From positions 16,807 through 80,806 of the forward strand of contig JAJYXQ010000023.1 of NCBI GenBank assembly GCA_021796385.1: 64,000 nt of DNA, written 5' to 3'. Positions 1 through 18,854 of this stretch are shown here, one piece after another. A program made the translations under genes and the position numbers. Every line of letters begins with the position of its first letter. The stretch's first letter is position 1. The stretch is from Thermoplasmata archaeon. Lineage in GTDB: Archaea > Thermoplasmatota > Thermoplasmata > Lutacidiplasmatales > UBA184. The notes beneath the pieces are model-generated. The model was given only the letters and a program-made list of their open reading frames with translations. It was not told the DNA's origin and searched no databases.

Positions 1-186
1 GGCCCCGTTTCCGGAGGGGGCGGGACCCAAGGATCCCCGGGTCTGGTGAGGAAGGGCTCCTCGCAGGGGTTATCCGGTGTGGGGGCTATCGTTCACCGGA
101 GTACGATTCGTGAATGGTAACCTTTCACGGTTGAGCCCGGCGATGGCCCAGTCAAGCTGACCCATCGATTCCGACAAGTTCAGGGT

Positions 187-1641
187 TCACTTGGGGGCTG
201 GAGGACCCGGGCCAAACTGGAACGGGATCTCCCCCTTCAGCACTCGAGTCCCAAGCTCTCGGTAGGCGATCCCCTGTAGCTGTCCCGTCTGGATCACGCT
301 GGCCAGCAAGGCGGTGCGGTCCGCCCCCTTCTTCGTCCGGGATCCCCAGGACAGCTTCCGTTTCACGGCGATGTGAGGACGGAGTCCTTGCTCTGCGATG
401 TTGTTGTGAGCATCCACACCCATCTCCGCCCACCACCACAGCTCGTCCCAGTGCTTGCTCCCGTACTTTTGAAGGGTCAGGGCCACCGTGCCCTCACGCT
501 TCACTCCCAGCCATCGGCGGGCCCACGCCATCAACCGCTTGGCCTCCCGGGCCTTCTCTTCCCCGGTGGGCCACTTGGCCACCTCCAAGATCCGCCGGCA
601 CAGTTTCTCCATCGCTCGCAGACCGCGCCAGTCCGGGGCATCGGAGGGGCGTTCCCATCCCTCCTGCCCCTGCTTCGCCTTCCGTAGGAGGTGGACCCAG
701 CACCGTTGCTTCTTCCCGTGCACGGCGTTGAAGGCCACCCCTCCATCACAGTTCAACACCTGTCCCTTGGGTCGACGCTTCCCGAGGACTCCCTCGGGAA
801 CCTCGTGGCCTGCCGACTTGTCCACCCGGAAGAAGGCCGCCTTCACATCCGGGCTGATGAAGTCCCACAGGTTGTAGTTGACCCCGTCCACTCTCCATCC
901 GGTCCAGTCCGCATTGACCTGCTTGCCTTCCTTCAGCGCCCGCCGGATCGCCTCGTAGGCAGGGGCGAAGAGACGAGCCGACCTCGCCAGCATCTTGTCG
1001 ATCTCGCCCACGCTCACTTTCAGTCCGTAGTCCGAGCTGAGGAGATCCCTCAGCATCGAGGTGGTCAAGCCCTTCAGGGACCAGTAACCAACGAGGAAGT
1101 GCGTTCCCCACGAGAAGTTCGACTTCGGGGGAGCCACGTCGTGGGGGATGTGGGCTCTCCGGATCTTCTTGCATCCCCGGCATCGGTAGCGACCGATGCG
1201 CCACTTGGTGATGCGCACATGACCAGGGATGACGGACTCCACAGTGTGCTCGTCCCATTCGAAGGGGCCCTCCAAAGGCCCTCCGCAGTCGGGACAGGCG
1301 TTCAACTCCGCCTCCCGTGTCTCGTCGATTTGCTCGGGAGGTGGTCGATGGTGCGCCTCGTGCCCCTTCTTCGCACCACGCTTGTGTGAACTCTCCTCTC
1401 CCTCCTTCTTCACGTTGGGTTTGACCCAGGGAGGGGGAGGACTTCGCCTTCCCTCCTGGAGTTCGAGGAGATGGCGGAGTCGCTCGATCTCCTTGTCCTG
1501 CTCTTCGATGCGGTGCTGAAGGCGAGCCAGAAGCTCCTCGAGCTTCTTCTTGGAAATGATGAGGGTCTCCTCGGATGCCCCGTCTGCAAGAAGTCCGTCC
1601 ACCGCCGGAGAAACCATACTTCCGGCAATAGAGGAAGACAA
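187..1641 (-). CDS. IS66-family transposase (TnpC-like, single-ORF type); mobile element gene
   Basis: 484-aa ORF with an N-terminal leucine-zipper/coiled-coil (KKKLEELLARLQHRIEEQDKEIERLRHLLELQ), a CPDCGG zinc-finger motif and a conserved IS66 core (WVHLLRK, DETREAELN). Host-like high GC. No convincing TnpB-like orf2 upstream. Confidence 0.85.
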   Translation of the reverse strand: MSSSIAGSMVSPAVDGLLADGASEETLIISKKKLEELLARLQHRIEEQDKEIERLRHLLELQEGRRSPPPPWVKPNVKKEGEESSHKRGAKKGHEAHHRPPPEQIDETREAELNACPDCGGPLEGPFEWDEHTVESVIPGHVRITKWRIGRYRCRGCKKIRRAHIPHDVAPPKSNFSWGTHFLVGYWSLKGLTTSMLRDLLSSDYGLKVSVGEIDKMLARSARLFAPAYEAIRRALKEGKQVNADWTGWRVDGVNYNLWDFISPDVKAAFFRVDKSAGHEVPEGVLGKRRPKGQVLNCDGGVAFNAVHGKKQRCWVHLLRKAKQGQEGWERPSDAPDWRGLRAMEKLCRRILEVAKWPTGEEKAREAKRLMAWARRWLGVKREGTVALTLQKYGSKHWDELWWWAEMGVDAHNNIAEQGLRPHIAVKRKLSWGSRTKKGADRTALLASVIQTGQLQGIAYRELGTRVLKGEIPFQFGPGPPAPK

Positions 1642-1884
1642 TTCGCGCTTTAGACCTTTCGGTAGTAGCTCCGGTGTGAAAGTGGGAGTTCAACCGAAGG
1701 TAAAAACGCCTCGAGGGGCCCTACTGTGAAGGGTTACTCCACGGCATCCCAGATGACCAGAGGACACTCGACCAAATCCTGGGAGGGCGCCCAGAGATAC
1801 CGTCTGCGAAGGAGATAGCCTCTGAGAGCGAGTCCGAGCCCGGAGATTTCCCGGATTCGGGCGACGAGAAGGAGGACTAGGGTC

Positions 1885-3426
1885 GTGGGGTCTCTCAGTC
1901 TCACGCCCGCATTCTCTCAAAGGGCCTTTGTGTCTCCAGATCCTTTGCTGGTGTTTGGACGAGGGCAGAAGTCTGGGGATCAACGTATGGGGCTGGCACT
2001 TTACGGGCCAGCTCCACTTGTTGCGGGGCCGAGGGAAGACGCACCGATAGAACTCTCCGTGGGAATAGTCGGGACCGGGACATCCATCTCCAGCACAAAC
2101 GCATGGATGCGCTCCGTCAGCTCAGAAGTATACTGCCGTAGCAAGAAGGGTGTTACATCCTATTTTCCAGGTCTCAACGCGGACTCACCTCTTCGAACAA
2201 GCTTGCGAACTGACCCCAGAATCCAAATCATCTTGTCCACGTCTGAGGTGGCAGAGGCGGTCGCCCCGAAGGACTATGGCGAGCGTATTGACAAGGTCAC
2301 TGCTCTCTTCGCACGTTCCTTCAAAGCTCTGTCGAGCTCGGACCCTGCGCCTCAAGTGGTCCTCTGCCCACTTCCCGATCAGGTCATTGAGCGATGTGTC
2401 ACAGGGCTCGATCGGTTCGGGCGGTATCGTTCTCCCAAAAGATTGGCCCCACTGCCACGCGGACATCAGTCGAGCCTATATGACTTCCTCCCTGACATCG
2501 GTGGGATTGAGGCTGAGGCGGCCGCCGTGGACCACTACGGCAATCTTTGGAGGGCGTTGAAAATCGAAGCGATGAGGGTTGGGTTGCCGCTTCAGGTGAT
2601 ATGGTCGCGAACCTTGGAACAGGGAGTGGGGGTACAAAACTCCGCCGTCGTTGCATGGAATCTCTTCTCTGGACTTTATTACAAGGTGAAGGGGAGGCTC
2701 TGGCACCTTCCAGTGCAATCGACCACTACCTGCTACATCGGCCTTTCGTTCTACCATGAGAGGACGTCGGAGAACGACCGTCTCAACTGTAGCATGGCCC
2801 AAATCTTCTCCGATTCGGGTGATGGTTTGGTCTTCAGAGGAGGTGCTCTGGCCCGACGTTCCGAGATGGGGCTAACACCACGATTGGACGCGCACAGTGC
2901 AAAGTCCCTAGTGAGTCAATCACTCTCTCTCTACCACACTAGGATGCAGGGTGTTTATCCTGCCCGTGTGGTGGTTCACAAGAGCTCAAGGTTCTCACTG
3001 GAAGAACGGGAGGGTATCGAGTCAGCCATCACGGAGGCTGGAATCAAGCTGTTCGACATGGTTGCGATCGAGCCGGGAAGCACATACCAGTACTACCGGC
3101 TTGGAAGGTATCCCCCGCTGCGGGGGACCTCGATACGGATGCCGGATGGTCGGTGGTTAATCTACACAAGGGGGTACGTGCCCATCAACCACACGTATTC
3201 TGGGCCCGCGACTCCCTCGCCGCTCGCCGTGCTGGAGCATTTTGGGGAGTCCTCCACAGACCAAGTCCTCTCCGACATAATGGGGTTGACTCGCCTCAAC
3301 TGGAATAGTACCGACCACTCATGCCTACTTCCAGTGACCCTAGCTTCTTCCAAGAGGGTAGGAAGTGTCCTTTCGGAATACCGTGCCGAGGGCGAACCTG
3401 GCACACAGCTCAAGTTCTACATGTAG
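1885..3426 (+). CDS. PIWI-domain protein, short prokaryotic Argonaute-like (MID-PIWI), catalytically degenerate; possible true start near 2104 (MRSVSSEVY) where GC drops
   Basis: MID/PIWI junction motif NLWRALKIEAMRVGLPLQVIW (compare Ago NLxLKINxKLGG). PIWI strand motifs TCYIGLSFYH (in place of GxDVxH, D->S) and ARVVVHKSSRF (in place of HRDG). C-terminal LNWNSTDHSCLLPVTLASSKRVGSVL resembles the PIWI C-terminal PxxYYAxxAAxR region. Length 440-513 aa fits a short pAgo. Confidence 0.7.
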   Translation: MGSLSLTPAFSQRAFVSPDPLLVFGRGQKSGDQRMGLALYGPAPLVAGPREDAPIELSVGIVGTGTSISSTNAWMRSVSSEVYCRSKKGVTSYFPGLNADSPLRTSLRTDPRIQIILSTSEVAEAVAPKDYGERIDKVTALFARSFKALSSSDPAPQVVLCPLPDQVIERCVTGLDRFGRYRSPKRLAPLPRGHQSSLYDFLPDIGGIEAEAAAVDHYGNLWRALKIEAMRVGLPLQVIWSRTLEQGVGVQNSAVVAWNLFSGLYYKVKGRLWHLPVQSTTTCYIGLSFYHERTSENDRLNCSMAQIFSDSGDGLVFRGGALARRSEMGLTPRLDAHSAKSLVSQSLSLYHTRMQGVYPARVVVHKSSRFSLEEREGIESAITEAGIKLFDMVAIEPGSTYQYYRLGRYPPLRGTSIRMPDGRWLIYTRGYVPINHTYSGPATPSPLAVLEHFGESSTDQVLSDIMGLTRLNWNSTDHSCLLPVTLASSKRVGSVLSEYRAEGEPGTQLKFYM

Positions 3427-3479
3427 GTCACTTGAGAACGTTCGCAAAGCGATAAGTGCCCTGAGAAGTCACTCCCCCC

Positions 3480-5549
3480 ATGGCCAAGGGGGGAGGTAAA
3501 GTAACCTCAGAAGAAAACGGGACGATCGCGCCATTGGTCAAGCCACGGGGATCTGCGAGACTGGTTTGGAACTCTAAGCCTCACCGCGAGCCAAATCCGC
3601 GGGATCTTGAGTTCCAACCCGCGGAGGTAGTATTTCCTAATCGTGCCGCGGGTCAAACCGAGCTACTCTTACCTCGAACGTCAGAGGGTGAAGTGGATGA
3701 TAGTAAACTAAACCGTCTGATATGGGGAGACAATCTGCTTACCATGCAGGTGCTCTTGGCTCAAGGATTCGCGGGGAAATTTGAGCTCATCTACATCGAT
3801 CCCCCGTTCCTGAGTAACAGTGACTATTCCCACAACGTTTCTATAGCCGGAGTCAAAGACGTTAGACAGTCGCCTAGTATGATAGAAAGGCTTGCCTATC
3901 GCGACACTTGGAGTGGGGGTATCGACACCTACTTGGATTTTCTGTTCCCCAGACTGCAAACAATGCGGTCACTACTCAGTGACAATGGCACCATTTACAT
4001 CCACCTTGGACCGTCAGTTGCCCCATACGTCAGGGTGCTAACGGACGAAATCTTTGGAACTGCAAGGTTTCAGACCACGGTCATTTGGAAAAGAACTTCG
4101 GCTCACTCCGACACTCAGGGGTGGGGGAGAAATTATGACGAGATTCTCGTGTACTCTAAGGGAGACGCGCCAATCTGGAATCAAATGTATGGGGAGTACT
4201 CGGATGAGTACGTAAAATCGCATTACAACATGAAAGGTGAGGACGGGCGCCTCTTCATGCCAGACAACCTAACTGCGTCGGGTCTTAGTCACGGGAGCTC
4301 CGGGATGGCTTGGAAGGGTTTTGATCCTTCGACAAAGGGCTGTCACTGGAAATTTACTGTCGAGAAGCTTGACATACTTGACGCTCAGGGACGAATATAT
4401 TGGCCGCCGTCCGGGGGTTGGCCACGTTACAAGAGATATCTAGATGAAATGTCAGGGATACCGTTGCAAAGTATCTGGACAGATGTACCTCCAGTAAATA
4501 GCCAAGCAAGAGAAGATTCCGGATTTGACACCCAGAAACCACTCTCCTTACTGAAGAGGATTATCTCCGCGTCTTCAAACCCAGACGGTCTCGTTGGTGA
4601 CTTCTTCGCTGGTTCGGGCACCACCGCAGTTGCAGCAGAAACCCTAGGGCGAAGGTGGCTGTTGTGTGACCTTGGAAAGGTGGGAATCCAAGTTTCCAGG
4701 ACAAGACTCGTAGATATCGGTGCCAAGCCCTTTGTAATCGAGAACATCGGCAACTACCAACGGGAGTTGATATACAGAGAAGGAGGGAATATTGCGATGA
4801 TGCAACGCATTGTCATGAAACTTTACGGAGCAGAACCCCATCCAGCTCACACCGACATCGGGATTTTGGATGATGGTGGAAAGAGAATCCTTGTCTATGT
4901 CGGATACCCTGATCGTCCACTGACCGCGAAGAAGACCGCCGAGCTAGTCAAGATAGCACGGTCTCTCGACGGAGTCGGTTACGACAAGTTGGTACTACTC
5001 GCTTGGGACTATGAGTATAACTATGATGAGGGAATCGAGGTCCGCAGAAAGGGGTTTGGAGTCCAGGTTGAACCACGCCTCATTCCATCGAGTATCTATG
5101 ATTACTTGCGCAAGTCGAAGAACGAGGATGACTTGATCGAAAAGTTTGCTAAGAAGATTCAATTCGGCGCCAAGCCTTATCTCAAGGTCACGTCCCCCAA
5201 GGTTACCGATAGAGGCGGAGGTGAATACAACGTCGTAGTCGCCATCGAAAAGTATGTTCTCTCCGAGATTCCAGTTGAGAATGAAGACGACCGAATCGAG
5301 CTTCATAAGATATCGGCTGGAGATAGATTCGCCGTTCTCATTGACTACTGGGCTGTGGATTGGGACTACGACGGAAAAACTTTCCGCAGCAGATGGCAAG
5401 ACTTTCGATCGAACGAGAAGGGTGGCAGGTCAATCACCACTAGGGCGAATACAACGCTCACCGAGTCTAGGCGGTTCGACATTGCAGTCCGAGTAGTCGA
5501 CGTCTTCGGGAACGATGCTACCGCAACGACAAGTGTAGATCTGAGGTAA
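3480..5549 (+). CDS. mod: Type III-like DNA methyltransferase Mod subunit (beta-class N6A/N4C MTase) with about 290-aa C-terminal extension
   Basis: N-terminal LIWGDNLLTMQVLL followed by motif IV ELIYIDPPF, then motif I FFAGSGTTAVAAETLGRRWLLCDL about 260 aa later (IV...TRD...I order = beta class, typical of Type III Mod). Its stop lies 2 bp before the Res start. Confidence 0.85.
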   Translation: MAKGGGKVTSEENGTIAPLVKPRGSARLVWNSKPHREPNPRDLEFQPAEVVFPNRAAGQTELLLPRTSEGEVDDSKLNRLIWGDNLLTMQVLLAQGFAGKFELIYIDPPFLSNSDYSHNVSIAGVKDVRQSPSMIERLAYRDTWSGGIDTYLDFLFPRLQTMRSLLSDNGTIYIHLGPSVAPYVRVLTDEIFGTARFQTTVIWKRTSAHSDTQGWGRNYDEILVYSKGDAPIWNQMYGEYSDEYVKSHYNMKGEDGRLFMPDNLTASGLSHGSSGMAWKGFDPSTKGCHWKFTVEKLDILDAQGRIYWPPSGGWPRYKRYLDEMSGIPLQSIWTDVPPVNSQAREDSGFDTQKPLSLLKRIISASSNPDGLVGDFFAGSGTTAVAAETLGRRWLLCDLGKVGIQVSRTRLVDIGAKPFVIENIGNYQRELIYREGGNIAMMQRIVMKLYGAEPHPAHTDIGILDDGGKRILVYVGYPDRPLTAKKTAELVKIARSLDGVGYDKLVLLAWDYEYNYDEGIEVRRKGFGVQVEPRLIPSSIYDYLRKSKNEDDLIEKFAKKIQFGAKPYLKVTSPKVTDRGGGEYNVVVAIEKYVLSEIPVENEDDRIELHKISAGDRFAVLIDYWAVDWDYDGKTFRSRWQDFRSNEKGGRSITTRANTTLTESRRFDIAVRVVDVFGNDATATTSVDLR

Positions 5550-5550
5550 G

Positions 5551-8448
5551 TTGATGCCAAGGCAACGAAACCTCGAGGAGGAGGATATCACCCAACTCTT
5601 CCTCAGCAAGAAGCTCGCAGAGCTTGTTGACGATTGGGCGAGGGACGACTTGCCGATTGATCAACGCTGGCCAGGAACCACCCAGACCACTCACGAGCTA
5701 CTTCGGTACTGGTTCAACCGTGATGTGGATACCCCGAGTCGGTTCCACGACGCCCAACGGCGAGCGATTGAAACTCTGGTTTACTGTCACGAAGTCTTGA
5801 GAACAATCGATGGGAAGCCCATCGGGAAACTAGCTGATATCTATGAAAGGGTCGTCCCTGACAAGATTGACCAGTTCACCCATATTGCCACTGAAACTGC
5901 GGAAACTGACTACCAGAAATATTGCCTCAAGATGGCCACTGGGTCTGGGAAGACCTGGATTCTACAAGCCGCCCTCGTGTGGCAGTATTTCAATGCGGTT
6001 CGAGGAGAGGGGGCCCCTCGAAGGTTCTCGAAGCACTTTCTTGTGGTCACTCCTGGACTCGTGGTCCTATCGCGACTTCTCGATGCATTCCTAGGCAAGA
6101 AGGATGCTAGCGGAAATCGAGACCCCACCAAGGCCGACCTCCGTAACGACCTGTTCATTCCCCCAGAATGGCGGAAGGATTTCCATGTGCGTGTAATGAG
6201 TCCAGAGGATATCAATCCCTCTACCTCTGCTGGAGATGAAGCCTTTGTGCTGGTGCTCAACTGGCACAAGCTTGCGTCTAAGGATGGACGTGAGACGCTC
6301 GCTACGCAGATTTTCGGCCGAGATGAAGGAGACAACTCCGAGGTATACCTATCTTTCCTTTCTTCTTACCCAGACCTCGTGATCTTCAATGACGAGGCGC
6401 ATCATGTGCACAGCAAGGCGCGAAGTGAGGGGAGCAAGGACATCGATGCAAAGTGGTTAGAGGCCGTTAAGCGCCTCCGCGAACACAATCGCCGCCTCGG
6501 TAGCAGGGCGGGACTATTCTTGCAAGTTGACTTCTCGGCCACCCCATTCACGGGAACAGGCAATGCAAAGCGGTACTTTCCCCATATCGTCTTTGACTAC
6601 GATCTCAAAGACGCCATGAACGGCTGGTCTCCTGTCCAGAAGAAGGTGGTCCCGCTTCCCCTCGTAAAGCAGCTGTTCCTCGAAGAGAGGCAAACAACCA
6701 CAGCGGAACTGGCCACCCTTGACTTCAGAGCGATTCGAGAAGCCGCAGATGGCAAGAAGAGAGGGGCGGTGGCGGCTTTGAGCTCTGGACAACTCCTGAT
6801 GCTTGAGATTGGGCTCAAGAAATTGGATCAGATAGCCAAGGAGTTCGCACGATCAGGATTCTCGCAGAAGGCAGTCATGTTTGTCGCTTGCGAGGAGAAC
6901 GAGGTTGCCGACCTGGTCTACGATCACCTGAAATCCCGTTCGGACGACAGAGGGCGTCTTCTCAAAGACCAGATACTTGTGATTCACAGTGACGCCAAAG
7001 ACCGGATTGCAGAGGATGAGTGGAAGGAAAACCAGTTCCTCCTCGAATCGATCGATGACCCTGAGTCGGTGAACCCCAAACGCATCATCATCAGCGTCAT
7101 GATGCTCCGTGAGGGATTCGACGTTCGGAGCATCTGCGTCACCGTGGTCCTCCGGTCGAGTGAATCCGACATCCTCTTGGAACAGATGGTAGGGCGTGGA
7201 TTACGTCTGATGTTTACCGGCCCGGAGTTCTTTGAAACCAAGCTACATGCCCTTGAACAAGTTTCTCAGGGACAGACTCCTTCGGCGGCCCTCGACTTCC
7301 TGTTCGTGGTGGACCACCCCAGATTCCGACAGTTCTACGAGACTCTCAGGAACGAGGGATTCCCTATCTACTCAGGCGACAGTTCAGGAGTGAACACCAG
7401 CGGCGATCTCCAGCCTGTCAAAGTCGACCCAACGAGAGTCTCAACGTACGACGTGGGTTGGCCAATACAGTTCCACGATGAGGGAAGGATCCCAGACCCC
7501 CGTTTGATTGACCCCAAGACCTTACCGACCTTCGGCAAGACCTTCCCAGAAGTCAAAGCAGAATTCGATGCCATCCTGATTGCCGACAAGCACAAGGTCA
7601 CCGAAAACATTGTCTCGACTTGGGGCCTTCAGACAGAACTCTTCGATTACGGTTTCTTCCTTCGTCAGATAGCACTGAGGTTAACCACCGACGGAGGGGA
7701 CCGCACAACACTTTCTGCACGCCGTTCCGAGCTCATGGAACTCATCGACCGGTACACTAGTGACTATCTTTTCGGAGCGCCCGTAGATTTCACGCTCGCT
7801 GACAACTACCGTGTGCTGGTTCATGTCCCCATCTATGACTTCGTATCGCAACGACTTCGAATCGCACTGACGGACCTCCTCGGAAAAGTTGTCTTTGAGC
7901 CTCAATCCGAAGCGGTGTGGCAACGAGTATCTCGAGTGCCCGAGATTCTCACCCGCAGTAAAACCGCCGTCACCACAACCAAGTCGGTGTACCCCAAGCA
8001 AGCACCAGCGGCCAAAGGTGGGGGTTTCGAAGCCAAGTTTATGAGGGACGTCCTCGAGCGGAGTGGCAGTGTGCTTGCCTACGCCAAGCTCGATCAGAGA
8101 CACGATTTTCGTATCCGATACGTCAACGAGTACGGCATAGCTCGGGACTATTACCCTGACTTCTTAGTGAAGACCAAGGAGAAGATGTACCTTGTGGAGA
8201 CTAAGGCCAACAAGGACATGGGCACCGCAGTGGTGGCGAGGAAGGCGCGAGCCGCAACGGGGTGGTGCGAAGCGGCTAGCCGAATCAAGCCCCCTCCCGA
8301 GTTGAATCAGCCACAGGAGTGGGAGTACGTCCTCCTATCAGAGAGGACCTACGACCTCAACCGTGCAGTTGGGTTTGACGGACTCTTGGCCACTTGCAGG
8401 ACTGAGTTGCGTCATGTCCTGGCTTTTGGACAGGGCAGGTTGCAGTAA
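5551..8448 (+). CDS. res: Type III restriction enzyme Res subunit (SF2 DEAH helicase + C-terminal PD-(D/E)xK endonuclease)
   Basis: Walker A KMATGSGKTW, motif II VIFNDEAHHV, motif VI QMVGRGLRL. C-terminal nuclease motif YPDFLVKTKEKMYLVETK (PD...ExK). 965 aa matches the EcoP15I Res size class. Confidence 0.85.
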   Translation: MMPRQRNLEEEDITQLFLSKKLAELVDDWARDDLPIDQRWPGTTQTTHELLRYWFNRDVDTPSRFHDAQRRAIETLVYCHEVLRTIDGKPIGKLADIYERVVPDKIDQFTHIATETAETDYQKYCLKMATGSGKTWILQAALVWQYFNAVRGEGAPRRFSKHFLVVTPGLVVLSRLLDAFLGKKDASGNRDPTKADLRNDLFIPPEWRKDFHVRVMSPEDINPSTSAGDEAFVLVLNWHKLASKDGRETLATQIFGRDEGDNSEVYLSFLSSYPDLVIFNDEAHHVHSKARSEGSKDIDAKWLEAVKRLREHNRRLGSRAGLFLQVDFSATPFTGTGNAKRYFPHIVFDYDLKDAMNGWSPVQKKVVPLPLVKQLFLEERQTTTAELATLDFRAIREAADGKKRGAVAALSSGQLLMLEIGLKKLDQIAKEFARSGFSQKAVMFVACEENEVADLVYDHLKSRSDDRGRLLKDQILVIHSDAKDRIAEDEWKENQFLLESIDDPESVNPKRIIISVMMLREGFDVRSICVTVVLRSSESDILLEQMVGRGLRLMFTGPEFFETKLHALEQVSQGQTPSAALDFLFVVDHPRFRQFYETLRNEGFPIYSGDSSGVNTSGDLQPVKVDPTRVSTYDVGWPIQFHDEGRIPDPRLIDPKTLPTFGKTFPEVKAEFDAILIADKHKVTENIVSTWGLQTELFDYGFFLRQIALRLTTDGGDRTTLSARRSELMELIDRYTSDYLFGAPVDFTLADNYRVLVHVPIYDFVSQRLRIALTDLLGKVVFEPQSEAVWQRVSRVPEILTRSKTAVTTTKSVYPKQAPAAKGGGFEAKFMRDVLERSGSVLAYAKLDQRHDFRIRYVNEYGIARDYYPDFLVKTKEKMYLVETKANKDMGTAVVARKARAATGWCEAASRIKPPPELNQPQEWEYVLLSERTYDLNRAVGFDGLLATCRTELRHVLAFGQGRLQ

Positions 8449-8629
8449 CTATCAAGGTCTGTAGATACAATTCCTTGGGAATTTGACCTATGCCGAAGGT
8501 TGCATTCTTCAGCCATGTTTTCCAGGTGGCTCTTGACGATGCTTTCGCCTCGAGCTCGATTAACCAGCGAAGTTATTTACCCAAGTCCATCTCGAACGAG
8601 AGTTTCTCAGCCCGAGGGAGCGATGGTCT

Positions 8630-9982
8630 ATGACACAAACAATTGAAGAGTGCGTGAGGAAAGGTGTGGAAGAGGGGCTACTCAAGTTGGAGGACGGGGT
8701 CCTCACCTATGTTCAAGCCGACAAGTCCTACACGCTTACCGATGAGGAGCAGGTACGGGCAGCCCTCTTCGTCTACCTCGTTACGGAGAAATCAGTTGTT
8801 CCTAGGTCAGTCTCAATCGAACTCGATAAAGTGGATTTGCGTATCGTGAATGACGAGGGTGGAATCCAATCAATCTACGAATGCAAGGCTGAGTGTGGAG
8901 ACGAAGCCTCGGTTCAAGCGGCCATACAACAAGCTCGTGGATATGCGGCCACTCTAGGGGTCCGAGCCTTCTTCGTTGCCTTCAGCCAGGAGAATCACCT
9001 CAAGATTCGAACGGCTAGCATGGAGTTCCCCTCTCCCGTGGTACGTCCGGCCATTCCCTCGTTTCCAACGAAGATTATCTCAACAATCAACCTCAAAGGA
9101 GGGGTAGGGAAGACTTCCATTACGTGTGCTCTTGCTGAGTTTCTGACGATTGAACGACGCAAGCGAGTCCTTGTCATCGACCTTGATCCGCAGACCAACG
9201 CAACCGTTGTCCTAATGGGAGAAGAGCAGTGGCACACGACACGCGAGACAAGAGAACTCACCCTTGCCCATTACTTCAAACGGGTTCTGGAAGAGAAGTC
9301 ACCGTCGCCTTTCGACTTTGCCACGGCCCTTGTGAAGGATACGTCAAACATTGGTGGAGGGGTCAGAGGGCTTGACTTGATCCCCTCAAGTCCTCTCTTC
9401 ATTGAGATTCAGGATGATATCCCACGCATCACCACGAAGCGGTTCGGGGCAGTCTCGCATACAATGGTATTGGACAAAGCACTGCGCCCGCTCTTGAAGA
9501 AGAACCAGTACGACTACGTCCTGATCGATTGCCCTCCAAGTCTAGGGGCACTGACTTTAAACGGACTCTTCATGAGTCAGTTCTTTCTCGTGCCATGCAT
9601 CCCCGATTGGATTTCCACCTATGGAATCCCTCAGATTCTAAAGCAAGCGTACCGGTTCTCTAATGAGCACGACCGGCCTTTGAACTGCCTTGGAGTGGTT
9701 TTCTCACGGTACAAGAAGGTGAGCCGGCTCCACGAGACAACAGTACAAAGGTATCGTGCCCTTACTGGCAAGGGCATAGATAGTGAGCCGGAAGGGCCGG
9801 TCTTTCCTAAGGTATTCGACACAGTTATCAAGGATACGGGCAAGGCTGAGTCTGCTGTAGAGCCTGATCAGCCTGTGAACACTCTCAAGCAAAAATACGG
9901 TTACGGGACACCCTCCCTCTATGATCAGTACAACAACCTCTCCCTCGAGATGATGCAAGCGATAGATGCGTTTGGGGGGTAA
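8630..9982 (+). CDS. ParA/MinD(Soj)-family ATPase with about 150-aa N-terminal extension (possible PD-(D/E)xK-like fold)
   Basis: Deviant Walker A NLKGGVGKTSIT, A-prime VLVIDLDPQTNAT, Walker B YDYVLIDCPPSLG. The N-terminal 150 aa has a D...IYECK arrangement reminiscent of PD-(D/E)xK. Its own roughly 180-bp upstream region contains the palindrome ATTCCTTGGGAAT. Confidence 0.8.
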   Translation: MTQTIEECVRKGVEEGLLKLEDGVLTYVQADKSYTLTDEEQVRAALFVYLVTEKSVVPRSVSIELDKVDLRIVNDEGGIQSIYECKAECGDEASVQAAIQQARGYAATLGVRAFFVAFSQENHLKIRTASMEFPSPVVRPAIPSFPTKIISTINLKGGVGKTSITCALAEFLTIERRKRVLVIDLDPQTNATVVLMGEEQWHTTRETRELTLAHYFKRVLEEKSPSPFDFATALVKDTSNIGGGVRGLDLIPSSPLFIEIQDDIPRITTKRFGAVSHTMVLDKALRPLLKKNQYDYVLIDCPPSLGALTLNGLFMSQFFLVPCIPDWISTYGIPQILKQAYRFSNEHDRPLNCLGVVFSRYKKVSRLHETTVQRYRALTGKGIDSEPEGPVFPKVFDTVIKDTGKAESAVEPDQPVNTLKQKYGYGTPSLYDQYNNLSLEMMQAIDAFGG

Positions 9983-9991
9983 GCAGGAAAC

Positions 9992-10408
9992 ATGCCGCAC
10001 CAAGAGCATGGGTCACGCAAGTCTCCCCTGGCAAACCCAAGAGTCTCAAGCCGCGACCCCCAAGTGGTTGCGGCAGAGCTTCGAAAGCTGGCAACAAGGA
10101 TTGAGTCTGGTGACTTACGAGCACTCTCACGGGCGGTCCGCATTCTCAGGTCAAGCACCGTTCGACCGCAGCCCCGAAAGTTTCTCGGACCTGATTTGTT
10201 CAAGATCATCACTGAGGGAGGACACTTGGCTCTGGAACGGGAGATTGCGCCACTTTCATTAGAAGATCTTCGTGCTGTGGTTTCTTCCTACGGGTTGGAC
10301 TCACATGGGCGCGTTAGAAAGTGGAAGGACGTATCGAAGGTCAGGGAATTCGTGATTGCCAGACTGCTATCACACGCAGGTTCGGGTCAACGATTTCTAG
10401 AAGGATGA
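9992..10408 (+). CDS. small protein with SAP/HeH-like DNA-binding motif; possible centromere-binding (ParB/SegB-like) partner of the ParA-like gene
   Basis: 138-aa ORF 10 bp after parA-like, same strand and same low-GC composition. C-terminal LSLEDLRAVVSSYGLDSHGRVRKWKDVSKVREFVIARL fits the SAP motif pattern L..L.V.eLR..L...GL...G.K..Li.RL. Confidence 0.45.
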   Translation: MPHQEHGSRKSPLANPRVSSRDPQVVAAELRKLATRIESGDLRALSRAVRILRSSTVRPQPRKFLGPDLFKIITEGGHLALEREIAPLSLEDLRAVVSSYGLDSHGRVRKWKDVSKVREFVIARLLSHAGSGQRFLEG

Positions 10409-10728
10409 GTGTCCCTCTCCCTCAATCGCACGAGCCGTGGTAGCGGCAGGATTCTGGGACTCGGCAAGGAATTCTCCTCGACAAAGTTGGAATTGTGGAC
10501 TCCCGGGCCTGGATTCCGTGAGACTTACACCACAGGCGCCCGCTGAGATCCCTGAGTTCGACGTGAGAGGCTGATTTCACCCCGAAGGTGGCGTAGGCCT
10601 AACGAAGGGCTCCACGGTGTGGATGGAGGGAATGTTACACCGGAGTCGGCATCTCATCCAGCAACTTCAACCGGGAGACCAACTCTGCCTCCCCCAACCA
10701 TCTCCTCGAGCACCCATGCGGGCTAGGC

Positions 10729-10805
10729 CTATAGCGCGATTAGGTGTGCTTTCTTATCAGGTCTCACGCCGACAGGACACCCCAAACTCCCAACGGTGGA
10801 TCAAC
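10729..10805. repeat. about 75-bp repeat element, copy 1 (core GCGCGATTAGGTGTGCTTTCTTATCAGGTCTCACGCC)
   Basis: About 85% identical over roughly 75 bp to 14669-14745, including the exact run ATCAGGTCTCACGCCG. Non-coding context. Confidence 0.6.
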
Positions 10806-11112
10806 GCATTTCATGGCTTCATGATTTGCCCATGTTGCTTGACATTGGGTTCCCGCGTTCATGGGACTCCCCCAGCAGCGAATGTCGCAATGCCATGCCA
10901 AGGGCACGATTTACCATCATGGAATCGGACCACCAGCGATTCCGACACGGAAAACGATTCAACTCTTCAACCGCGGGGGGACCCGGGAGCAATGATAGTC
11001 GTTAGACGATTCAGCAGTTAATCGCGCATAAGGCCAGAACCATTCTGACAGCCGGGGAGTTCACGTCCTGGTCTCCCCGCCGTTGGTTCGGGGAGAACGG
11101 AGTGAAGATGGT

Positions 11113-11334
11113 TTAGGCACTGAGTTCAGGGCTAACCAACGTGAAGTGGAACTTCTCGAGAGGGTGTGCCTCGATTCTTTTCGAAGCGTCCAATATTTCG
11201 ATGGACACAATCTTCCTTCCCCTCCCGTAATCAATGACCAGTCCGTCCTCGGTCTCAACACTCTCCACGATCTTTCGGTTCTTGAGGAACTGGATGTTCA
11301 TCAGGTCGTGCTTTGCGTCGTACTCAATCTCCAT
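11113..11334 (-). CDS. DUF2283-family protein (antitoxin-like partner of DUF4258)
   Basis: 73 aa, MEIEYDAKHDLMNIQF...IVSIEILDASKRI, characteristic DUF2283 pattern. Lies 4 bp downstream of the DUF4258 gene. Confidence 0.7.
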   Translation of the reverse strand: MEIEYDAKHDLMNIQFLKNRKIVESVETEDGLVIDYGRGRKIVSIEILDASKRIEAHPLEKFHFTLVSPELSA

Positions 11335-11338
11335 GGTC

Positions 11339-11602
11339 TTACTTCCGATACCTCGTTACCTGTGATGTCAGATAGGCCGTCACGACTACATAATCCTTGT
11401 TCACACGTTCGTAGACGACACGTAGCATCATCCTCTTGCGGTTGACCACGTAGACTCTCTGCGCAACAAGCCGCCCTCCATAGCCGGGGACGGTCTCGTC
11501 CGGGGAACTGAGGGTCTCCTCCACCCACCTTCCCGGTATTCCTCGAAGACCCATCTTTCGGATGGCGAGCGGGATAATAATGATGGCTGGCATTACTTCC
11601 AC
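11339..11602 (-). CDS. DUF4258-family protein (RelE/ParE-fold toxin-like)
   Basis: 87 aa. C-terminal VYVVNRKRMMLRVVYERVNKDYVVVTAYL is typical of DUF4258. Paired with DUF2283. Confidence 0.7.
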   Translation of the reverse strand: MEVMPAIIIIPLAIRKMGLRGIPGRWVEETLSSPDETVPGYGGRLVAQRVYVVNRKRMMLRVVYERVNKDYVVVTAYLTSQVTRYRK

Positions 11603-11643
11603 CCTAACGACTCCCGCACATTAACCCTACATGAACCCTCGGT

Positions 11644-11826
11644 TCAGGCCCCCTTCCTCTGCTTCTTCGCCTTCAGCCCCAGGCGAAGAAGATAGTGGAC
11701 ATGGTCGCTTAGCGGCCGGATCTCCCTCTCGGCCTGGTCGCGGATCTCCCGCTCCAGCTCCTCGGGCAGGTAGACGGTCACCTTGACCTTTCCTTGGCTC
11801 GGCCGCCCTGGATGGCCCCCGGTCAT
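11644..11826 (-). CDS. ribbon-helix-helix (CopG/Arc-like) small DNA-binding protein, copy 1
   Basis: 60 aa: KVKVTVYLPEELEREIRDQAEREIRPLSDHVHYLLRLGL. TATA-like GGGGTATATAAGC about 25 nt upstream of the ATG on the coding strand. About 85% aa identity to 22843-23040. Confidence 0.7.
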   Translation of the reverse strand: MTGGHPGRPSQGKVKVTVYLPEELEREIRDQAEREIRPLSDHVHYLLRLGLKAKKQRKGA

Positions 11827-12023
11827 GGGGGGATCATGGGGTCTGGGGTATATAAGCTGTTGTAATAGATTACTAATGACGTATTACCGTTGTTATATGT
11901 CACGCACGGTTGGGAAGGACACCGTAGGTGTCCTAAGCGCGGCAGCAAGGGCCCCTCTCGAGTTATACGTCATGGGGAACCCTTCCCCCAGACTTGGTCT
12001 TGGTCGCTCATGCTTGTGGGCCC

Positions 12024-12206
12024 TCAACTCACACGGGCAGCCTGATCGCAGATCGGGAAGTAGGAGCATCTGCGACATTTCGGAACGGATGGGAGAGCGT
12101 CACCACTGTAAGGCTTCTGGAACTTGGCCACCCAGTCGGACAATTCCTGCCGAGCACGGCCGTCCCACGCAATCTTCCGAGGGATCAGGTCGCTGTAGAT
12201 CATCAA
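12024..12206 (-). pseudogene. C-terminal fragment of a Cas4/RecB-like PD-(D/E)xK nuclease (DUF83-type Cys cluster)
   Basis: Ends ...SVPKCRRCSYFPICDQ = C-x2-C-x-YF-x-I-C, the characteristic Cas4 C-terminal Fe-S cysteine motif. The upstream in-frame region is low-complexity, with no full-length N-terminal RecB motifs and no start codon. Confidence 0.45.
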
Positions 12207-12614
12207 CCCGTAGGGTGGAGCCGCTCCGTAGCGGTCCTCAACGATGACAGTAAGCGTAGAGCTGGAGGACGTGGGAGAAGTAAGGTGGACGCCCGGGCGC
12301 GGGCCCCCGGGACGACTTCACCTCGACGGGGACGACCCTTCCATCTGGGGCTCTCCGCAGCTCGTCGGGACGGCCCACGAGGCCGTGGACCTAGCTGGAC
12401 ATGGTGACCACCCTGCCGACCGTGGCCGAAGTCACGGACCCATCCACAGCTACCACCGGCCCGGGGAGAGCCTTCGGCGACAATGCCCGGTGGATGGCCC
12501 ATATGATGATGAGGACCAGGGTGAGGATGATCAGGGCTGGAAAAAGTGGAGCCACCATTGCACTGACCACGGGCAGCGCCCACCCCCCTCACTCCGGGCC
12601 AGCCGGGGGAAGCG

Positions 12615-13034
12615 CTAAGGCTGGCTCGGCAAGTGGCGTCGGGCCCAAGTAAGTATCCTCTCCGCCTGCGTTACCAGCCGTGCGGCTTCACTATGTTCGA
12701 CCTCCCGGTCCTCGTACTCGATGAGGTTCTTGAGGTGCAAGACGCTCCGGATTTGGCGGACCTTCTCCTCGCCTCCTTCTAGTCGGAGTCCCCTAACCAA
12801 CTCGGCCACCTCCTCATGCCCTTCGGCCGCGGACCGGATACCCTGATGGAAGGAAGTGAGGGAGTCGCACGTTGAGATCACAGCGTGGATGGCCGCCAGC
12901 CCGGCCCCGTTGGCATTGCCAGAGCCAAGGGCAAGAGAGGCAAGCCTGGCAAAGTCTGTGGCCTTGCGCAAGTACGTGCGATAGGCTCCTTGGGAGGCAT
13001 CCCTAGTTCGACCACTAGGTCTGGGCGGCGTCAT
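12615..13034 (-). CDS. HEPN-domain protein (partner of MNT nucleotidyltransferase)
   Basis: Start MTPPRPSG overlaps the MNT stop (ATGA). Rx5H-type motif IRSAAEGHEE in an all-alpha context. The longer 263-aa track ORF start is likely spurious. Confidence 0.65.
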   Translation of the reverse strand: MTPPRPSGRTRDASQGAYRTYLRKATDFARLASLALGSGNANGAGLAAIHAVISTCDSLTSFHQGIRSAAEGHEEVAELVRGLRLEGGEEKVRQIRSVLHLKNLIEYEDREVEHSEAARLVTQAERILTWARRHLPSQP

Positions 13035-13615
13035 TTGACAATCCACCCCTCGGTCTGGATGTTCCTCAGGAGAGACTGATTGCGGGGGGTGCGGACCTCG
13101 TCCTTGGTATAGGTCAATGTCGAGAGGGGATTCCCGTAGCGTTGGAAGACCTTGGATTCCAGCTTCTCCAGATCGGGTTGAATTCTTTCCTTGTCCCGAT
13201 CCCGGTCCACTTCGATGAGCAGGTCGATGTCGCTCCGGCTGCTCTCCTGACCCTTCGTGACGGAACCATACACCACTGCGCGGAGAATCTTGGGCGATAA
13301 CAGGCCGGCTCGTAACGTCTCCAGCAGATCCTCCCTCAAGGAGTCCTCCTTTCGGAATACTTCCCGGACGACAGGGACAAGGACGTGCTCTGCCTCCAGC
13401 CTCCACAGGACAGCCCGACCCGCCCGATGCATGTGTGCGATCCCCGCGCGCTCAAGGTCCTTGAGGGCCCCGATCGCCTGGGGTGCGGAGGACCCCGATA
13501 GCCGGGCCACCTCCCGGCCTGTGGATTCGCGCGTGGGAAATCGGCAAAGGACCCGGAGCACCTTCACTCGGGAGGATGAGGCGAAGAGTTCGTCCATCGG
13601 GTGCTGGAATCGCAT
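13031..13615 (-). CDS. minimal nucleotidyltransferase (MNT) with N-terminal winged-helix domain
   Basis: YGSVTKGQESSRSDIDLLIEV = GSx9-10 DxD nucleotidyltransferase motif. N-terminal HTH (RVLCRFPTRESTGREVARL). Confidence 0.8.
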   Translation of the reverse strand: MRFQHPMDELFASSSRVKVLRVLCRFPTRESTGREVARLSGSSAPQAIGALKDLERAGIAHMHRAGRAVLWRLEAEHVLVPVVREVFRKEDSLREDLLETLRAGLLSPKILRAVVYGSVTKGQESSRSDIDLLIEVDRDRDKERIQPDLEKLESKVFQRYGNPLSTLTYTKDEVRTPRNQSLLRNIQTEGWIVK

Positions 13616-13631
13616 AATGTTATGATACCCT

Positions 13632-13647
13632 GACAGATGTCAGGAAT
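13632..13647. promoter_or_regulatory. perfect palindrome CCTGACAGATGTCAGG (putative operator) between a TATA-like box and the MNT start
   Basis: 7-bp arms with a 2-bp spacer, 17 bp upstream of the MNT ATG. On the coding strand a GCTTATATG TATA-like element lies just upstream of it. Confidence 0.4.
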
Positions 13648-13983
13648 AGCTAACATATAAGCTTGCCCCCGCTCCCCGGCGATATGCCTGCGTCACAGGA
13701 CCCCGGGTTCGACATCCTGCCCCGATGACCCGCCTCCTTATCGAGGAACTGGGAAAGTGCCGGAAGGAGTGTATCGAGCGAAGTTGACCAGGTCTCCGCC
13801 TCGACAATCATGAGGTCACCTTGGTTCACTCGTGGCCGAAGTCCATACACAAGCCGCGATCCGACTTTGAGAAAGCAGGTTGATCAGCCGTGCCAAGACC
13901 CTGGCCACCTCCGGTAAATCCCGGAGGTTGCGGGTGGAAGGACTCGCGTAGTTGAAAAGCGACCCCACTCTTAACCATCGATA

Positions 13984-14607: not shown

Positions 14608-14668
14608 CGGACTAACGAAACGCACTTCAGGAATCGGCGCCTATGAACTCGGGTGAGATGTTTCCCCA

Positions 14669-14745
14669 GTAGGCCCTATGCGCGATTGAGTGTGGGTTTC
14701 TATCAGGTCTCACGCCGGTGCACCCCCCGAAACCACTGTGCAGTA
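14669..14745. repeat. about 75-bp repeat element, copy 2
   Basis: See 10729-10805. Located 60 bp downstream of the 13984-14607 gene. Confidence 0.6.
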
Positions 14746-14920
14746 CTTGGACGGCGTTGACCGATTCTCTCCGTGAGCTGGTGTAGTTGTACGCGCGGGA
14801 GGGAGCGGCTTCGCCCCTCACCCCAACTCGAGAATGAATCGCCCCAGGTTCGGCTTTGAGAACATCAATGCTCCCGCCAGCCCATTGGCCCCAGCAAGAT
14901 TTCGCGAACTGAAGACGCCC

Positions 14921-14938
14921 AACGCGGGTTATACATCA
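14921..14938 (+). promoter_or_regulatory. shared 18-mer CAACGCGGGTTATACATC (TATA-like) upstream of a surface-protein paralog, copy 1
   Basis: Exact 18-nt match to 18751-18768. Both copies lie upstream of YVTN surface protein genes. Contains TTATACA. Confidence 0.35.
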
Positions 14939-18768: not shown

Positions 18769-18854
18769 GTTGGCGTTTGCCAATGTGAGGTGGGCAAAAT
18801 CGAAACGGCGGATAGCGAGAGGGACCGACCGATCTTGGAAGGGGGATTGATCCC

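Follow-up and report, generated by a model that had tools for sequence, protein, structure and literature searches.

A putative mosaic defence island with a truncated short Argonaute system in a Thermoplasmata archaeon

Genes and features at the locus

The DNA considered here, a 64,000-nucleotide stretch of a Thermoplasmata contig to which we refer as the window, carries close to its left end a block of low GC content that begins beside an IS66-family insertion sequence. An earlier note, made from the letters and open reading frames, had described positions 1850–10450 as a discrete low-GC island of horizontally acquired cargo with IS66 on its left, and had recognised in it genes for a PIWI protein, Mod and Res, together with a ParA-like gene and a small neighbour. 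Profile searches with Pfam and PADLOC confirm the IS66, PIWI, Mod and Res assignments, and the features that they and the accompanying comparisons place between the left end of the window and about 23 kb are the following.

117–1737, minus strand: IS66-family element with a single ORF in an ISBst12-like layout (Pfam DDE_Tnp_IS66, 1.5e-21; zf-IS66, 3e-7)
187–1641, minus strand: transposase ORF of this element, with a probable ATG at 1617
1740–1880, plus strand: 3' remnant of the gene for the Argonaute partner, a PD-(D/E)xK nuclease-APAZ protein; last 46 codons and stop (translation, tblastn)
1885–3426, plus strand: short prokaryotic Argonaute (pAgo), MID-PIWI, full-length ORF of 513 aa (PADLOC pAgo_I, 1.1e-119)
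3480–5549, plus strand: Mod, type III-like N6/N4 DNA methyltransferase, 689 aa (Pfam N6_N4_Mtase, PF01555, 1.1e-36)
5551–8448, plus strand: Res, SF2 helicase with a C-terminal PD-(D/E)xK nuclease, 965 aa (Pfam ResIII, 2.8e-12)
8630–9982, plus strand: 450-aa fusion of a restriction-endonuclease-fold domain (about residues 1–135) with a ParA/Soj-type Walker ATPase (about residues 147–450)
9992–10408, plus strand: conserved 138-aa partner of the ParA-type ATPase, starting 9 nt after the ATPase gene
11113–11826, minus strand: toxin-antitoxin-like three-gene operon of RHH (11644–11826), DUF4258 (11339–11602) and DUF2283 (11113–11334) genes (Pfam)
11653–11901: first copy of a direct repeat of about 250 bp (RHH gene and upstream region), 81–88% identical to 22846–23094
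12615–13615, minus strand: pair of HEPN (12615–13034) and minimal nucleotidyltransferase (13031–13615) genes in a GC-rich patch (Pfam, PADLOC)
14023–14607, plus strand: predicted membrane or secreted protein of 194 aa
15371–21272, plus strand: two low-GC3 genes for surface-type beta-propeller (NHL/YNCE) proteins, at 15371–18598 (1075 aa) and 18855–21272 (805 aa) (Pfam YNCE, NHL)
21273–21650: intergenic region in which the composition of the window changes most strongly (segmentation, 21,650)
21638–22843: segment of host-like GC missing from the sister strains L102 and L103 (alignment)
21638–22438, plus strand: class I SAM methyltransferase (Pfam Methyltransf_11, 2.7e-16)
about 22421–22804, minus strand: fragment of a folE2/GCHY-1-type GTP cyclohydrolase gene (GCHY-1, 8.6e-6, profile positions 160–206 of 260)
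22846–23094: second copy of the RHH repeat (RHH_5, 0.011), whose left end is the synteny break with the sister strains

In its right part the block carries two toxin-antitoxin-like modules, the three-gene operon and the HEPN/nucleotidyltransferase pair. In the three-gene operon the Pfam E-values are 1.2e-4 for RHH_5, 1.1e-4 for DUF4258 and 1.2e-12 for DUF2283. The two RHH repeats were considered as att sites and rejected, since what is repeated, inexactly, is an RHH paralogue together with its promoter region, and the copies do not bracket the low-GC block. The gene calls for the HEPN/nucleotidyltransferase pair, as well as that for 14023–14607, were taken from the contigs L011 and L012; the pair matches HEPN (2e-4), NTP_transf_2/Polbeta (about 2.5e-6) and PADLOC PDC-M05A (8e-21), and the 194-aa protein, with no match in Pfam, has a hydrophobic N-terminal segment in its translation. 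Both beta-propeller genes (GC3 of 0.57 and 0.63, respectively) encode a C-terminal hydrophobic anchor, as judged from the translation. Because paralogues with host-like GC3 lie at 23385–25571 and 53468–55612, these two may be native genes that have diverged and not acquired ones. The host-like segment at 21638–22843 is flanked by imperfect 33-nt direct repeats (21397–21429 and 22797–22829), and a scan of JGI metagenomes with the boundary methyltransferase found a single relative (40%).

An Argonaute gene next to an insertion sequence

The IS66-family element agrees with the ISBst12-like single-ORF group in its DDE_Tnp_IS66 and zf-IS66 domains, its length of about 1.6 kb and its GTAA-type terminal inverted repeats, GTAACCTTTCACGGT at 117–131 and GTAACCCTTCACAGT as the reverse complement of 1723–1737, which match at 13 of 15 positions; TnpA/TnpB accessory ORFs are absent from this copy. 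A simple insertion of an IS66-family element is recognised by an 8-bp target-site duplication. In contrast to the group, no such duplication accompanies this copy, the flanking 8-mers (cgtgaatg and tccacggc) being unlike each other, and no continuation of the partner gene was found in the 116 nt to the left of the element. With the target duplication missing and the partner gene not resuming on the left side of the element, the block's left edge appears to have arisen by deletion or recombination at the IS rather than to mark an original integration boundary. The junction between the element and the partner remnant is common to all metagenome contigs recovered, which come from six samples; the contigs retrieved with the ParA gene represent the same population only and end inside the element or inside res.

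The Argonaute gene itself is complete. Its product covers positions 7–455 of the 455 in the pAgo_I profile, consists of MID and PIWI domains only and aligns over its full length with solved short pAgos in phmmer searches; translation would start at a GTG preceded by GGAGG 9 nt upstream. The nearest solved chains are 9om4_B (1.3e-68), whose partner chain is an HNH endonuclease, and 9qbp_B/9jsb_A, whose partner chains are DUF4365 proteins. The 513-aa MID-PIWI architecture and the co-deposition of its solved relatives with HNH endonuclease or DUF4365 chains align this protein with the nuclease-associated short pAgo systems, that is, clade S2B of Koopal et al. 2022 (PMC9097488), SPARDA (PMC12205087) and SPARHA (PMC12738770).

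The system at this locus differs from those nuclease-associated ones in being incomplete. The two closest homologues of the pAgo (78% and 55% identity) have a REase-APAZ protein of 494–498 aa encoded directly upstream, with stop and start codons coupled or overlapping, and the effector of these partners is a PD-(D/E)xK domain of the PADLOC 'Aga_REase_Archaea' type, for which Pfam gave no match (DUF4365, HNH or other). In the window, the APAZ effector expected in the same operon, or fused to the Argonaute, is reduced to 46 codons at 1740–1880, directly after the insertion sequence. By tblastn this remnant aligns with residues 448–483 of the 494-aa partner of L007, which is encoded directly upstream of the pAgo 78% identical to ours, at 69% identity (E 2e-9), and with the L010 partner at 61% identity; the same search did not detect the rest of the partner gene anywhere in the window. 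A scan of GTDB genomes with an alignment of the pAgo yielded 80 loci, all at 38% identity or less, and a partner homologue is detectable directly upstream in 61 of them. The closest of these GTDB relatives, at 30–38% identity, are spread over unrelated bacterial and archaeal phyla. The truncated partner gene had been overlooked in the earlier note.

Judged from the sequence, the Argonaute system is broken, the IS66-family element having apparently cut the partner gene down to its last 46 codons. The characterised short pAgos, to our knowledge, act only as heterodimers with an APAZ effector, and for this reason the pAgo, left an orphan, has most likely lost its activity, barring a partner encoded elsewhere in the genome.

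Restriction-modification genes and a nuclease-ParA fusion

Downstream of the Argonaute gene, mod and res follow one another with the res start 1 nt past the mod stop. Besides its N6/N4 methyltransferase domain, Mod matches the PADLOC profiles MTase_III (3e-65) and MTase_II (2.9e-75); Res has further matches to the N-terminal domain of TnsA-like endonucleases (Pfam, 1.4e-5) and to REase_III (PADLOC, 9e-24), and a 'PDFLV...YLVETK' motif is seen in its translation. The order of the genes, their adjoining stop and start, the N6_N4 domain of Mod and the combination of an SF2 helicase with a C-terminal PD-(D/E)xK nuclease in Res are those of EcoP15I-like type III restriction-modification systems. 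Compared with these, the pair is only distantly related to the curated families: Res reaches 197 bits (3.6e-58) against the NCBIfam BPTD_3080-family restriction endonuclease, for which the cutoff is 800, and the NCBIfam PRK15483 match (E 5.5e-7) scores 27.9 against a cutoff of 564, both below the equivalog thresholds. Mod and Res form an intact-looking, type III-like pair that probably continues to act against unmodified DNA as type III systems normally do, Mod methylating and the helicase-driven Res cutting. Homologues of Mod/Res occur near the pAgo in just two of the 80 GTDB loci, which indicates that the Argonaute and the restriction-modification genes are merely co-located; a single conserved pAgo-Mod-Res operon was rejected on this count, the closest pAgo homologues also having no Mod/Res beside them.

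The next two genes had been read in the earlier note as a ParA-like protein with a small DNA-binding partner, resembling a plasmid partition module. The ATPase is indeed of the ParA type, with an intact deviant Walker A motif (KGGVGKT), and like type I plasmid ParAB, archaeal SegAB and the pNOB8 ParA it is followed directly by the gene for a small conserved protein. Type Ia ParAs carry an N-terminal winged-HTH. The N-terminal domain of the fusion has, in contrast, the fold of restriction endonucleases, with D...ExK as a conserved motif, and the best plasmid matches begin at residues 117–149 of the query, leaving this domain uncovered. It is very rare, with six matching proteins among 1.84 billion cluster representatives. 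Homology of this domain to the nuclease of the pAgo partner is not claimed, the match being confined to a 15-residue motif (E 0.025).

The 138-aa partner is 37% identical (E 1e-21) to a 125-aa ORF that follows the homologue P0182 in L104, and 32% identical (E 1e-13) to a 121-aa ORF that follows a 285-aa ParA in Nitrosarchaeum sp. AC2, where the pair lies on the chromosome and the ATPase has no nuclease domain. The ATPase and its small partner are thus, by sequence conservation, a real and recurrent module, and this part of the partition reading is conceivable. What sets the pair apart from ParAB, SegAB and pNOB8 pairs, besides the fused nuclease, is that the partner has no family match in Pfam, PADLOC or NCBIfam and no recognisable ParB, RHH or SegB family, and that centromere-like repeats were not found, whether as tandem repeats in 1–24 kb or as a family of short repeats near 8.4–10.6 kb. 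In both fusion loci with visible context the neighbours are helicase-methyltransferase restriction-type genes, namely an HKD-Snf2 helicase and a type IIG/DrmMI-like methyltransferase in L104 and the type III Mod/Res here. Tentatively, and at rather low probability, the fusion and its partner might constitute a two-gene defence module not described before, or else assist restriction systems, rather than serve in partition; a widespread pair of ParA and small partner would then have gained a nuclease domain, and it is plausible that ATP-dependent ParA dimers would load on DNA while the 138-aa protein regulates the fused nuclease. The recurrence of the pair leaves room for partition, yet it does not demonstrate a plasmid or ICE origin of the block.

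Extent and origin of the block

The compositional contrast reported earlier, about 52% against about 65% GC, is close to the values obtained here, 53.4% (0.534) for 1850–10450 and 64.4% (0.644) for 21651–64000, and the abrupt switch that had been placed near 2.0–2.1 kb is real, although likelihood segmentation sets it at about 1540 and the right end of the insertion sequence lies at 1737. That the composition becomes host-like again past about 10.4 kb, on the other hand, is not borne out. GC is 0.556 over 10451–12000, 0.619 over 12001–13750 and 0.542 over 13751–21400, so that both GC and GC3 stay low up to about 21.4–21.65 kb except in a short GC-rich patch at 12.0–13.75 kb. Among single change points, the strongest in the window falls at 21,650, with a log-likelihood ratio of 252.6 compared to 107.7 for a split at 10,450 and to a largest value of 10.9 in 20 block shuffles. 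GC3 rises from 0.63 to 0.81 between the genes that flank 21273–21650; over 1885–21272 the genes have GC3 values of 0.51–0.70, against 0.68–0.89, mostly 0.78–0.89, in 16 larger genes on the right (Mann-Whitney p=1.3e-4).

Tetranucleotide signatures likewise set the segment apart: 1885–10408 correlates with host segments at r of -0.07 to 0.12, whereas host segments among themselves give 0.28–0.59, and it resembles 13984–21272 weakly (r 0.25), on which grounds we regard the block as a mosaic. The composition is atypical in the manner of integrative elements, with GC of 0.547 versus 0.644, low GC3 and tetranucleotides uncorrelated with the host. The region flagged at first is therefore the left half, and the most foreign-looking part, of a mosaic block of about 20 kb that extends by composition from 1738 to about 21.6 kb.

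Comparison with sister strains places the right end of the variable region at 22,846. L102 (ENA) and L103 (GCA_027387155.1) are 99.15% identical to the window over 22846–35571, and the alignment stops exactly at 22,846, to the left of which both carry a Swt1-like HEPN/PDC-M34B-like gene and HEPN_AbiV. The composition edge and this synteny edge lie 1.2 kb apart, and the gap between them is host-like DNA. The content of close relatives thus differs at the site, as would be expected of horizontally acquired, strain-variable cargo; a true empty site was not seen in L102 and L103, whose contigs end 2.7–3.5 kb past the break. Independent assemblies span the junctions and show that the low-GC block is physically linked to host-like DNA: an ENA contig (L001) runs from the insertion sequence to 12.7 kb, a JGI contig of 63.7 kb from 6622 to past 35.5 kb, and GCA_027387185.1 (NCBI) from 18113 to 51.9 kb.

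The earlier note took the segment for an integrated plasmid or ICE. A single mobile replicon, with a partition module and addiction or defence cargo, would have inserted here, its integrase and replication genes disappearing afterwards. We consider this improbable. No integrase, replication or conjugation gene is present in 1–23 kb, and in agreement with the earlier remark that the window has no integrase, none of the ORFs tested between 1 and 33 kb matches an integrase or recombinase in Pfam or NCBIfam. A search of the flanks revealed no att-like repeat joining the left edge, which is an IS junction without target duplication, to the right one; tRNA predictions occur only at 26.3 and 38.0 kb, at neither edge, and 1–27 kb has no Rfam match. 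Iterons and tandem repeats are lacking, the ParA carries a nuclease-fold domain that its best plasmid matches do not cover, and, to judge from the tetranucleotide signatures, the block seems to derive from more than one source. A plasmid origin by nucleotide similarity was also rejected, with no match among 72,556 plasmids.

Alternatively, the region could be native: constraints on individual genes, or a regional bias of long standing, would account for the low GC, and the genes could simply have been lost from the sister strains. The paralogues of the beta-propellers elsewhere in the window and the host-like GC3 of the methyltransferase and the folE2 fragment in the variable part agree with such a view, and the sister-strain difference is readable as gain or as loss. 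Yet GC3 lies 0.2–0.3 under that of host genes across eight genes of unrelated function, the signature of 1885–10408 is uncorrelated with the host, the closest pAgo relatives are scattered over unrelated phyla as described above, and other defence genes occupy the same site in the sister strains, all of which makes a native origin decidedly improbable. Least credible of all is a chimera of assembly or binning in which foreign low-GC DNA was joined through the repeated insertion sequence, for even though the left junction is the IS, with just 116 nt of flank visible and every recovered short-read contig breaking inside the element, the right junctions (21.3–21.6 and 22.8 kb) are spanned at 99.98–100% identity by JGI 3300039716 and GCA_027387185.1, and the stretches from the IS to 12.7 kb and from 6.6 to 20 kb by other assemblies.

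The block is thus probably a horizontally acquired defence island of mosaic make-up that holds a decayed Argonaute system and sits at a strain-variable hotspot. Its cargo comprises the truncated short-pAgo system, Mod/Res, the nuclease-ParA fusion with its partner, the RHH-DUF4258-DUF2283 operon, the HEPN-nucleotidyltransferase pair and the two beta-propellers. The claim of horizontally acquired cargo is supported by the composition, the defence genes, the neighbouring IS66 element and the differing relatives left of 22,846. Such an island would have been built by several horizontal acquisitions and rearrangements, and recombination between strains may swap the content of the hotspot, with the repeated RHH cassette as a possible site. 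Clusters of unrelated defence and toxin-antitoxin modules with insertion sequences, of atypical composition and with other defence content at the same site in sister strains, are typical of prokaryotic defence islands and variable genomic hotspots (Makarova et al. 2013, PMC3632139); two departures are that the insertion sequence is the sole mobility gene here and that about one third of the block consists of genes for surface proteins, not defence.

With its boundaries and its plasmid/ICE label corrected, the island is an ordinary one, one more defence island in an uncultured genome, and the nuclease-ParA fusion is its only unusual part, a cheap candidate for tests of defence or plasmid stability. 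The Argonaute locus offers a clean natural case in which an insertion sequence appears to have inactivated a short-pAgo system while leaving the pAgo ORF itself intact, and automated counts of defence systems would have to score such an orphan pAgo as non-functional.

Composition and extent of the low-GC block

In a 500-nt sliding profile, GC falls from 0.62–0.66 at positions 1–1500 to 0.49–0.57 from about 1.5 kb onward. An earlier note on this DNA had described an island at 1850–10450 with 52% versus 65% GC, figures that are about right, since the interval has a GC of 0.534 and the remainder of the window (21651–64000) 0.644. Its right boundary is wrong: the supposed return to host-like values after about 10.4 kb is not seen, GC being 0.556 for 10451–12000, 0.619 for 12001–13750 and 0.542 for 13751–21400. 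Likelihood segmentation divides the window into four segments (1–1540, GC 0.634; 1541–21650, 0.546; 21651–44180, 0.627; 44181–64000, 0.664). The log-likelihood ratio is 252.6 for a split at 21,650 and 107.7 for one at 10,450; 20 block shuffles never exceeded 10.9. GC3 is 0.51–0.70 in the genes of 1885–21272 and 0.81 in the next gene, at 21620, and lies at 0.68–0.89, mostly 0.78–0.89, in the 16 larger right-hand genes compared (Mann-Whitney p=1.3e-4 versus block genes). The tetranucleotide z-score correlation is 0.28–0.59 among host segments, -0.07 to 0.12 between 1885–10408 and host segments, and 0.25 between 1885–10408 and 13984–21272. On the basis of the GC profile, GC3, segmentation and tetranucleotide data, the low-GC signal is real and well past chance. 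The windowed checks that the note had proposed thus uphold an atypical composition and carry the block to about 21.6 kb; it measures some 20 kb, not 8.6 kb, and is heterogeneous inside.

Features of the block and its right edge (window coordinates; strand where noted)
117–1737: IS66-family element, single ORF with DDE_Tnp_IS66 and zf-IS66 domains; 15-nt terminal inverted repeats, 13/15 matching
1740–1880: open frame, partner-gene remnant, ending 4 nt before the pAgo gene
1885–3426: short prokaryotic Argonaute (pAgo), full-length ORF (PADLOC pAgo_I, 1.1e-119)
3480–5549: Mod, N6_N4 methyltransferase
5551–8448: Res, ResIII helicase with C-terminal PD-(D/E)xK nuclease
8630–10408: restriction-endonuclease-fold domain fused to ParA ATPase, with partner (in two other loci of the fusion, L104 3846–5577 and L106 8001–9227)
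9992–10408: conserved small partner, 138 aa, next ORF after the fusion
11113–11826, minus: RHH-DUF4258-DUF2283 operon
12615–13615, minus: HEPN/nucleotidyltransferase pair (PADLOC PDC-M05A), coinciding with the GC-rich patch
between that pair and the beta-propeller genes: membrane-type protein, 194 aa
15371–21272: two large NHL/YNCE beta-propeller proteins with C-terminal anchors
21638–22438: host-like methyltransferase, right of the change point
22421–22804, minus: folE2/GCHY-1-type GTP cyclohydrolase gene fragment (profile positions 160–206 of 260 only)
22843–23019: second RHH gene

The truncated Argonaute system and its neighbors

The frame at 1740–1880 is 69% identical (tblastn, E 2e-9) to residues 448–483 of a 494-aa protein whose gene immediately precedes that of the closest pAgo homologue (78% identity, locus L007); its identity to the corresponding 498-aa protein of a 55% pAgo homologue (L010) is 61%. 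According to PADLOC, these partner proteins are 'Aga_REase_Archaea' at the N-terminus and 'REase-PNTD1-PNTD2' (APAZ) at the C-terminus, and their APAZ region matches chains co-deposited with solved short pAgos and named HNH endonuclease and DUF4365. Among solved chains the pAgo is closest to 9om4_B, whose partner chain is an HNH endonuclease, and to pAgos deposited together with DUF4365 chains, entries that seem to represent the SPARHA and SPARDA systems (PMC12738770, PMC12205087); SPARTA-type entries rank next (1e-36 to 1e-39). A partner homologue is detectable directly upstream in 61 of 80 pAgo loci from GTDB genomes. Here, no further piece of the partner gene was found anywhere in the window, and it does not resume in the 116 nt that precede the IS. 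The junction of IS, remnant and pAgo is identical across four aligned contigs (the window and metagenome contigs L002, L005 and L006), and gene layouts are consistent with it in 6/6 places shown, from six samples. These data show that the pAgo system is truncated by the IS, with the partner gene destroyed at the IS junction. Because the element has no target-site duplication (the 8-mers on its two sides differ) and its left flank does not match, the junction would be the scar of a deletion or recombination. The APAZ protein is the sole protein specifically associated with short pAgos (Koopal et al., PMC9097488). Characterised short pAgos function as heterodimers with an APAZ protein, in which the effector domain carries out the response (PMC9097488, PMC12205087, PMC12738770), and we infer from this that the orphan pAgo is non-functional.

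Mod and Res form, by their domains, a type III-like pair, of distant kinship only to curated families, and their putative type III activity is probably retained. Homologues of the pair lie near only 2 of the 80 pAgo loci, so the adjacency of pAgo and Mod/Res is a co-location, not an operon. One of the two, L045 in a Candidatus Limnocylindria MAG (3927–8266 and 10001–11539), has the homologues (27–29% identity) just upstream of the partner-pAgo pair and is probably an independent defence-island co-location. Two contigs, L011 (JGI) and L012 (ENA), both stop at about 6622 inside res, where other assemblies read through; strain microdiversity or a coverage artefact may explain the shared end.

A strain-variable hotspot

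Cluster look-ups find proteins of other MAGs that are ≥90% identical to proteins of the window. Contig L101 (GCA_027387185.1), 99.98% identical from its start at window 18113, crosses the change point at 21.3–21.6 kb, as does a 63.7-kb JGI contig reaching from 6622 to past 35.5 kb; the stretch from the IS to 12.7 kb is covered unbroken by other assemblies. Low-GC DNA is therefore physically joined to host-like DNA on the right in independent assemblies, which counts against the block being an assembly chimera.

L102 (an ENA contig) and L103 (GCA_027387155.1) are 99.15% identical to the window over 22846–35571 and unrelated left of 22,846; on that side, up to the contig ends, lie genes for a Swt1-like HEPN protein of 296 aa (PDC-M34B-like) and for HEPN_AbiV. 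Defence-type cargo at this site therefore differs by strain, making it a variable hotspot whose content would turn over by recombination. No true empty site of the kind envisaged in the earlier note was seen: the sister strains do differ here, but their site is filled with other genes, and the contigs stop within 3.5 kb. The synteny break falls exactly at the edge of a direct repeat of about 250 bp (11653–11901 and 22846–23094, 81–88% identity), which comprises the RHH gene and its upstream region and has counterparts at 2754–2988 of L102 and 3463–3697 of L103. Downstream of it lie, by copy and strain, DUF4258/DUF2283, the folE2 fragment, or Swt1-like HEPN and AbiV, suggesting that the regulator is a conserved 'head' whose downstream genes can be exchanged, a reading preferred to that of an att site, which was rejected. 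The folE2 fragment adjoining the RHH cassette is a sign of earlier rearrangement at the hotspot.

Other repeats occur nearby. A 33-nt imperfect direct repeat (21397–21429 and 22797–22829; 3 mismatches, unique in the window) brackets a 1.4-kb segment of host-like GC holding the methyltransferase and folE2 fragment; it is found in the same-strain contigs L100/L101 and missing from L102/L103. A 21–48-nt motif, GGCC.TAT.CGCGATT.AGTG..., occurs three times (10724–10771 and 14670–14717, direct; 11015–11035, inverted) around the toxin-antitoxin region, from the ParA module to the beta-propeller genes.

Farther right, the GCA_027387185.1 contig (L099/L101) is 99.98% identical over 18113–35571 versus 98.98% over 29503–51947, so divergence is concentrated past about 35.5 kb, a pattern indicative of a recombination mosaic or mixed-strain assembly. 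A large AAA_16-TPR-HTH (MalT/STAND-like) protein adjoining the hotspot (30535–33507, minus) is polymorphic in length, with 990 aa in the window and several relatives and 823–829 aa in others. ARAGORN calls a 99-nt tRNA-Ser(CGA) at 26265–26363, overlapping the 3' end of ORF 26298–27344, where Rfam at its gathering threshold finds no tRNA; ARAGORN has either picked up an archaeal tRNA with an intron or made a false call. Within an 885-aa secreted-protein gene, internal repeats at 27882–28332 (offset about 125 nt, 72% identity) encode a recurring 'GYWxVxxDGGIFxFG' motif.

The nuclease-ParA fusion and the origin of the cargo

In the restriction-endonuclease-fold domain of the fusion, D69 and E84-x-K86 are invariant. 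Full-length homologues are few (about 6, 37–52% identity), and a search of 1.84 billion cluster representatives with the N-domain alone found 6 proteins. The 138-aa partner resembles the ORF following P0182, the fusion homologue in L104 (37% identity, E 1e-21), and that following a 285-aa nuclease-less ParA on the Nitrosarchaeum sp. AC2 chromosome (32%, E 1e-13), one example of the nuclease-less 285-aa ParAs that this partner family also accompanies. In L104 the fusion-partner pair is closely followed by genes for an HKD-Snf2 helicase and a type IIG/DrmMI-like methyltransferase, and restriction-type helicase-methyltransferase genes adjoin the fusion in both loci with context (2/2). ParA and its small partner, a pair that the earlier note had picked out, are a real, recurrent module; its identification as a plasmid partition module fares less well, given the nuclease-fold fusion, no tandem or iteron-like repeats found beside the pair, and best plasmid protein matches that reach the ATPase part only, from query residues 117–149. 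Next to the Nitrosarchaeum pair lies a series of small ORFs, possibly an integrated element; with the recurrence of the pair, this makes mobile-element ancestry of the sub-module possible, but it does not show the segment as a whole to be a plasmid or ICE.

The plasmid or ICE origin proposed for the segment is not borne out: no ORF scanned encodes an integrase, replication or conjugation protein, no tRNA lies at a block edge, Rfam has no match in 1–27 kb, no repeat connects the two edges, and megablast against 72,556 plasmids gave no match. The block is nonetheless foreign in composition, strain-variable, and dense in defence and toxin-antitoxin modules, which supports horizontal acquisition of the cargo. 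The region is a defence island of a known kind, with a decayed short-pAgo system, and its sole unusual component is the very rare nuclease-ParA fusion with its conserved partner.
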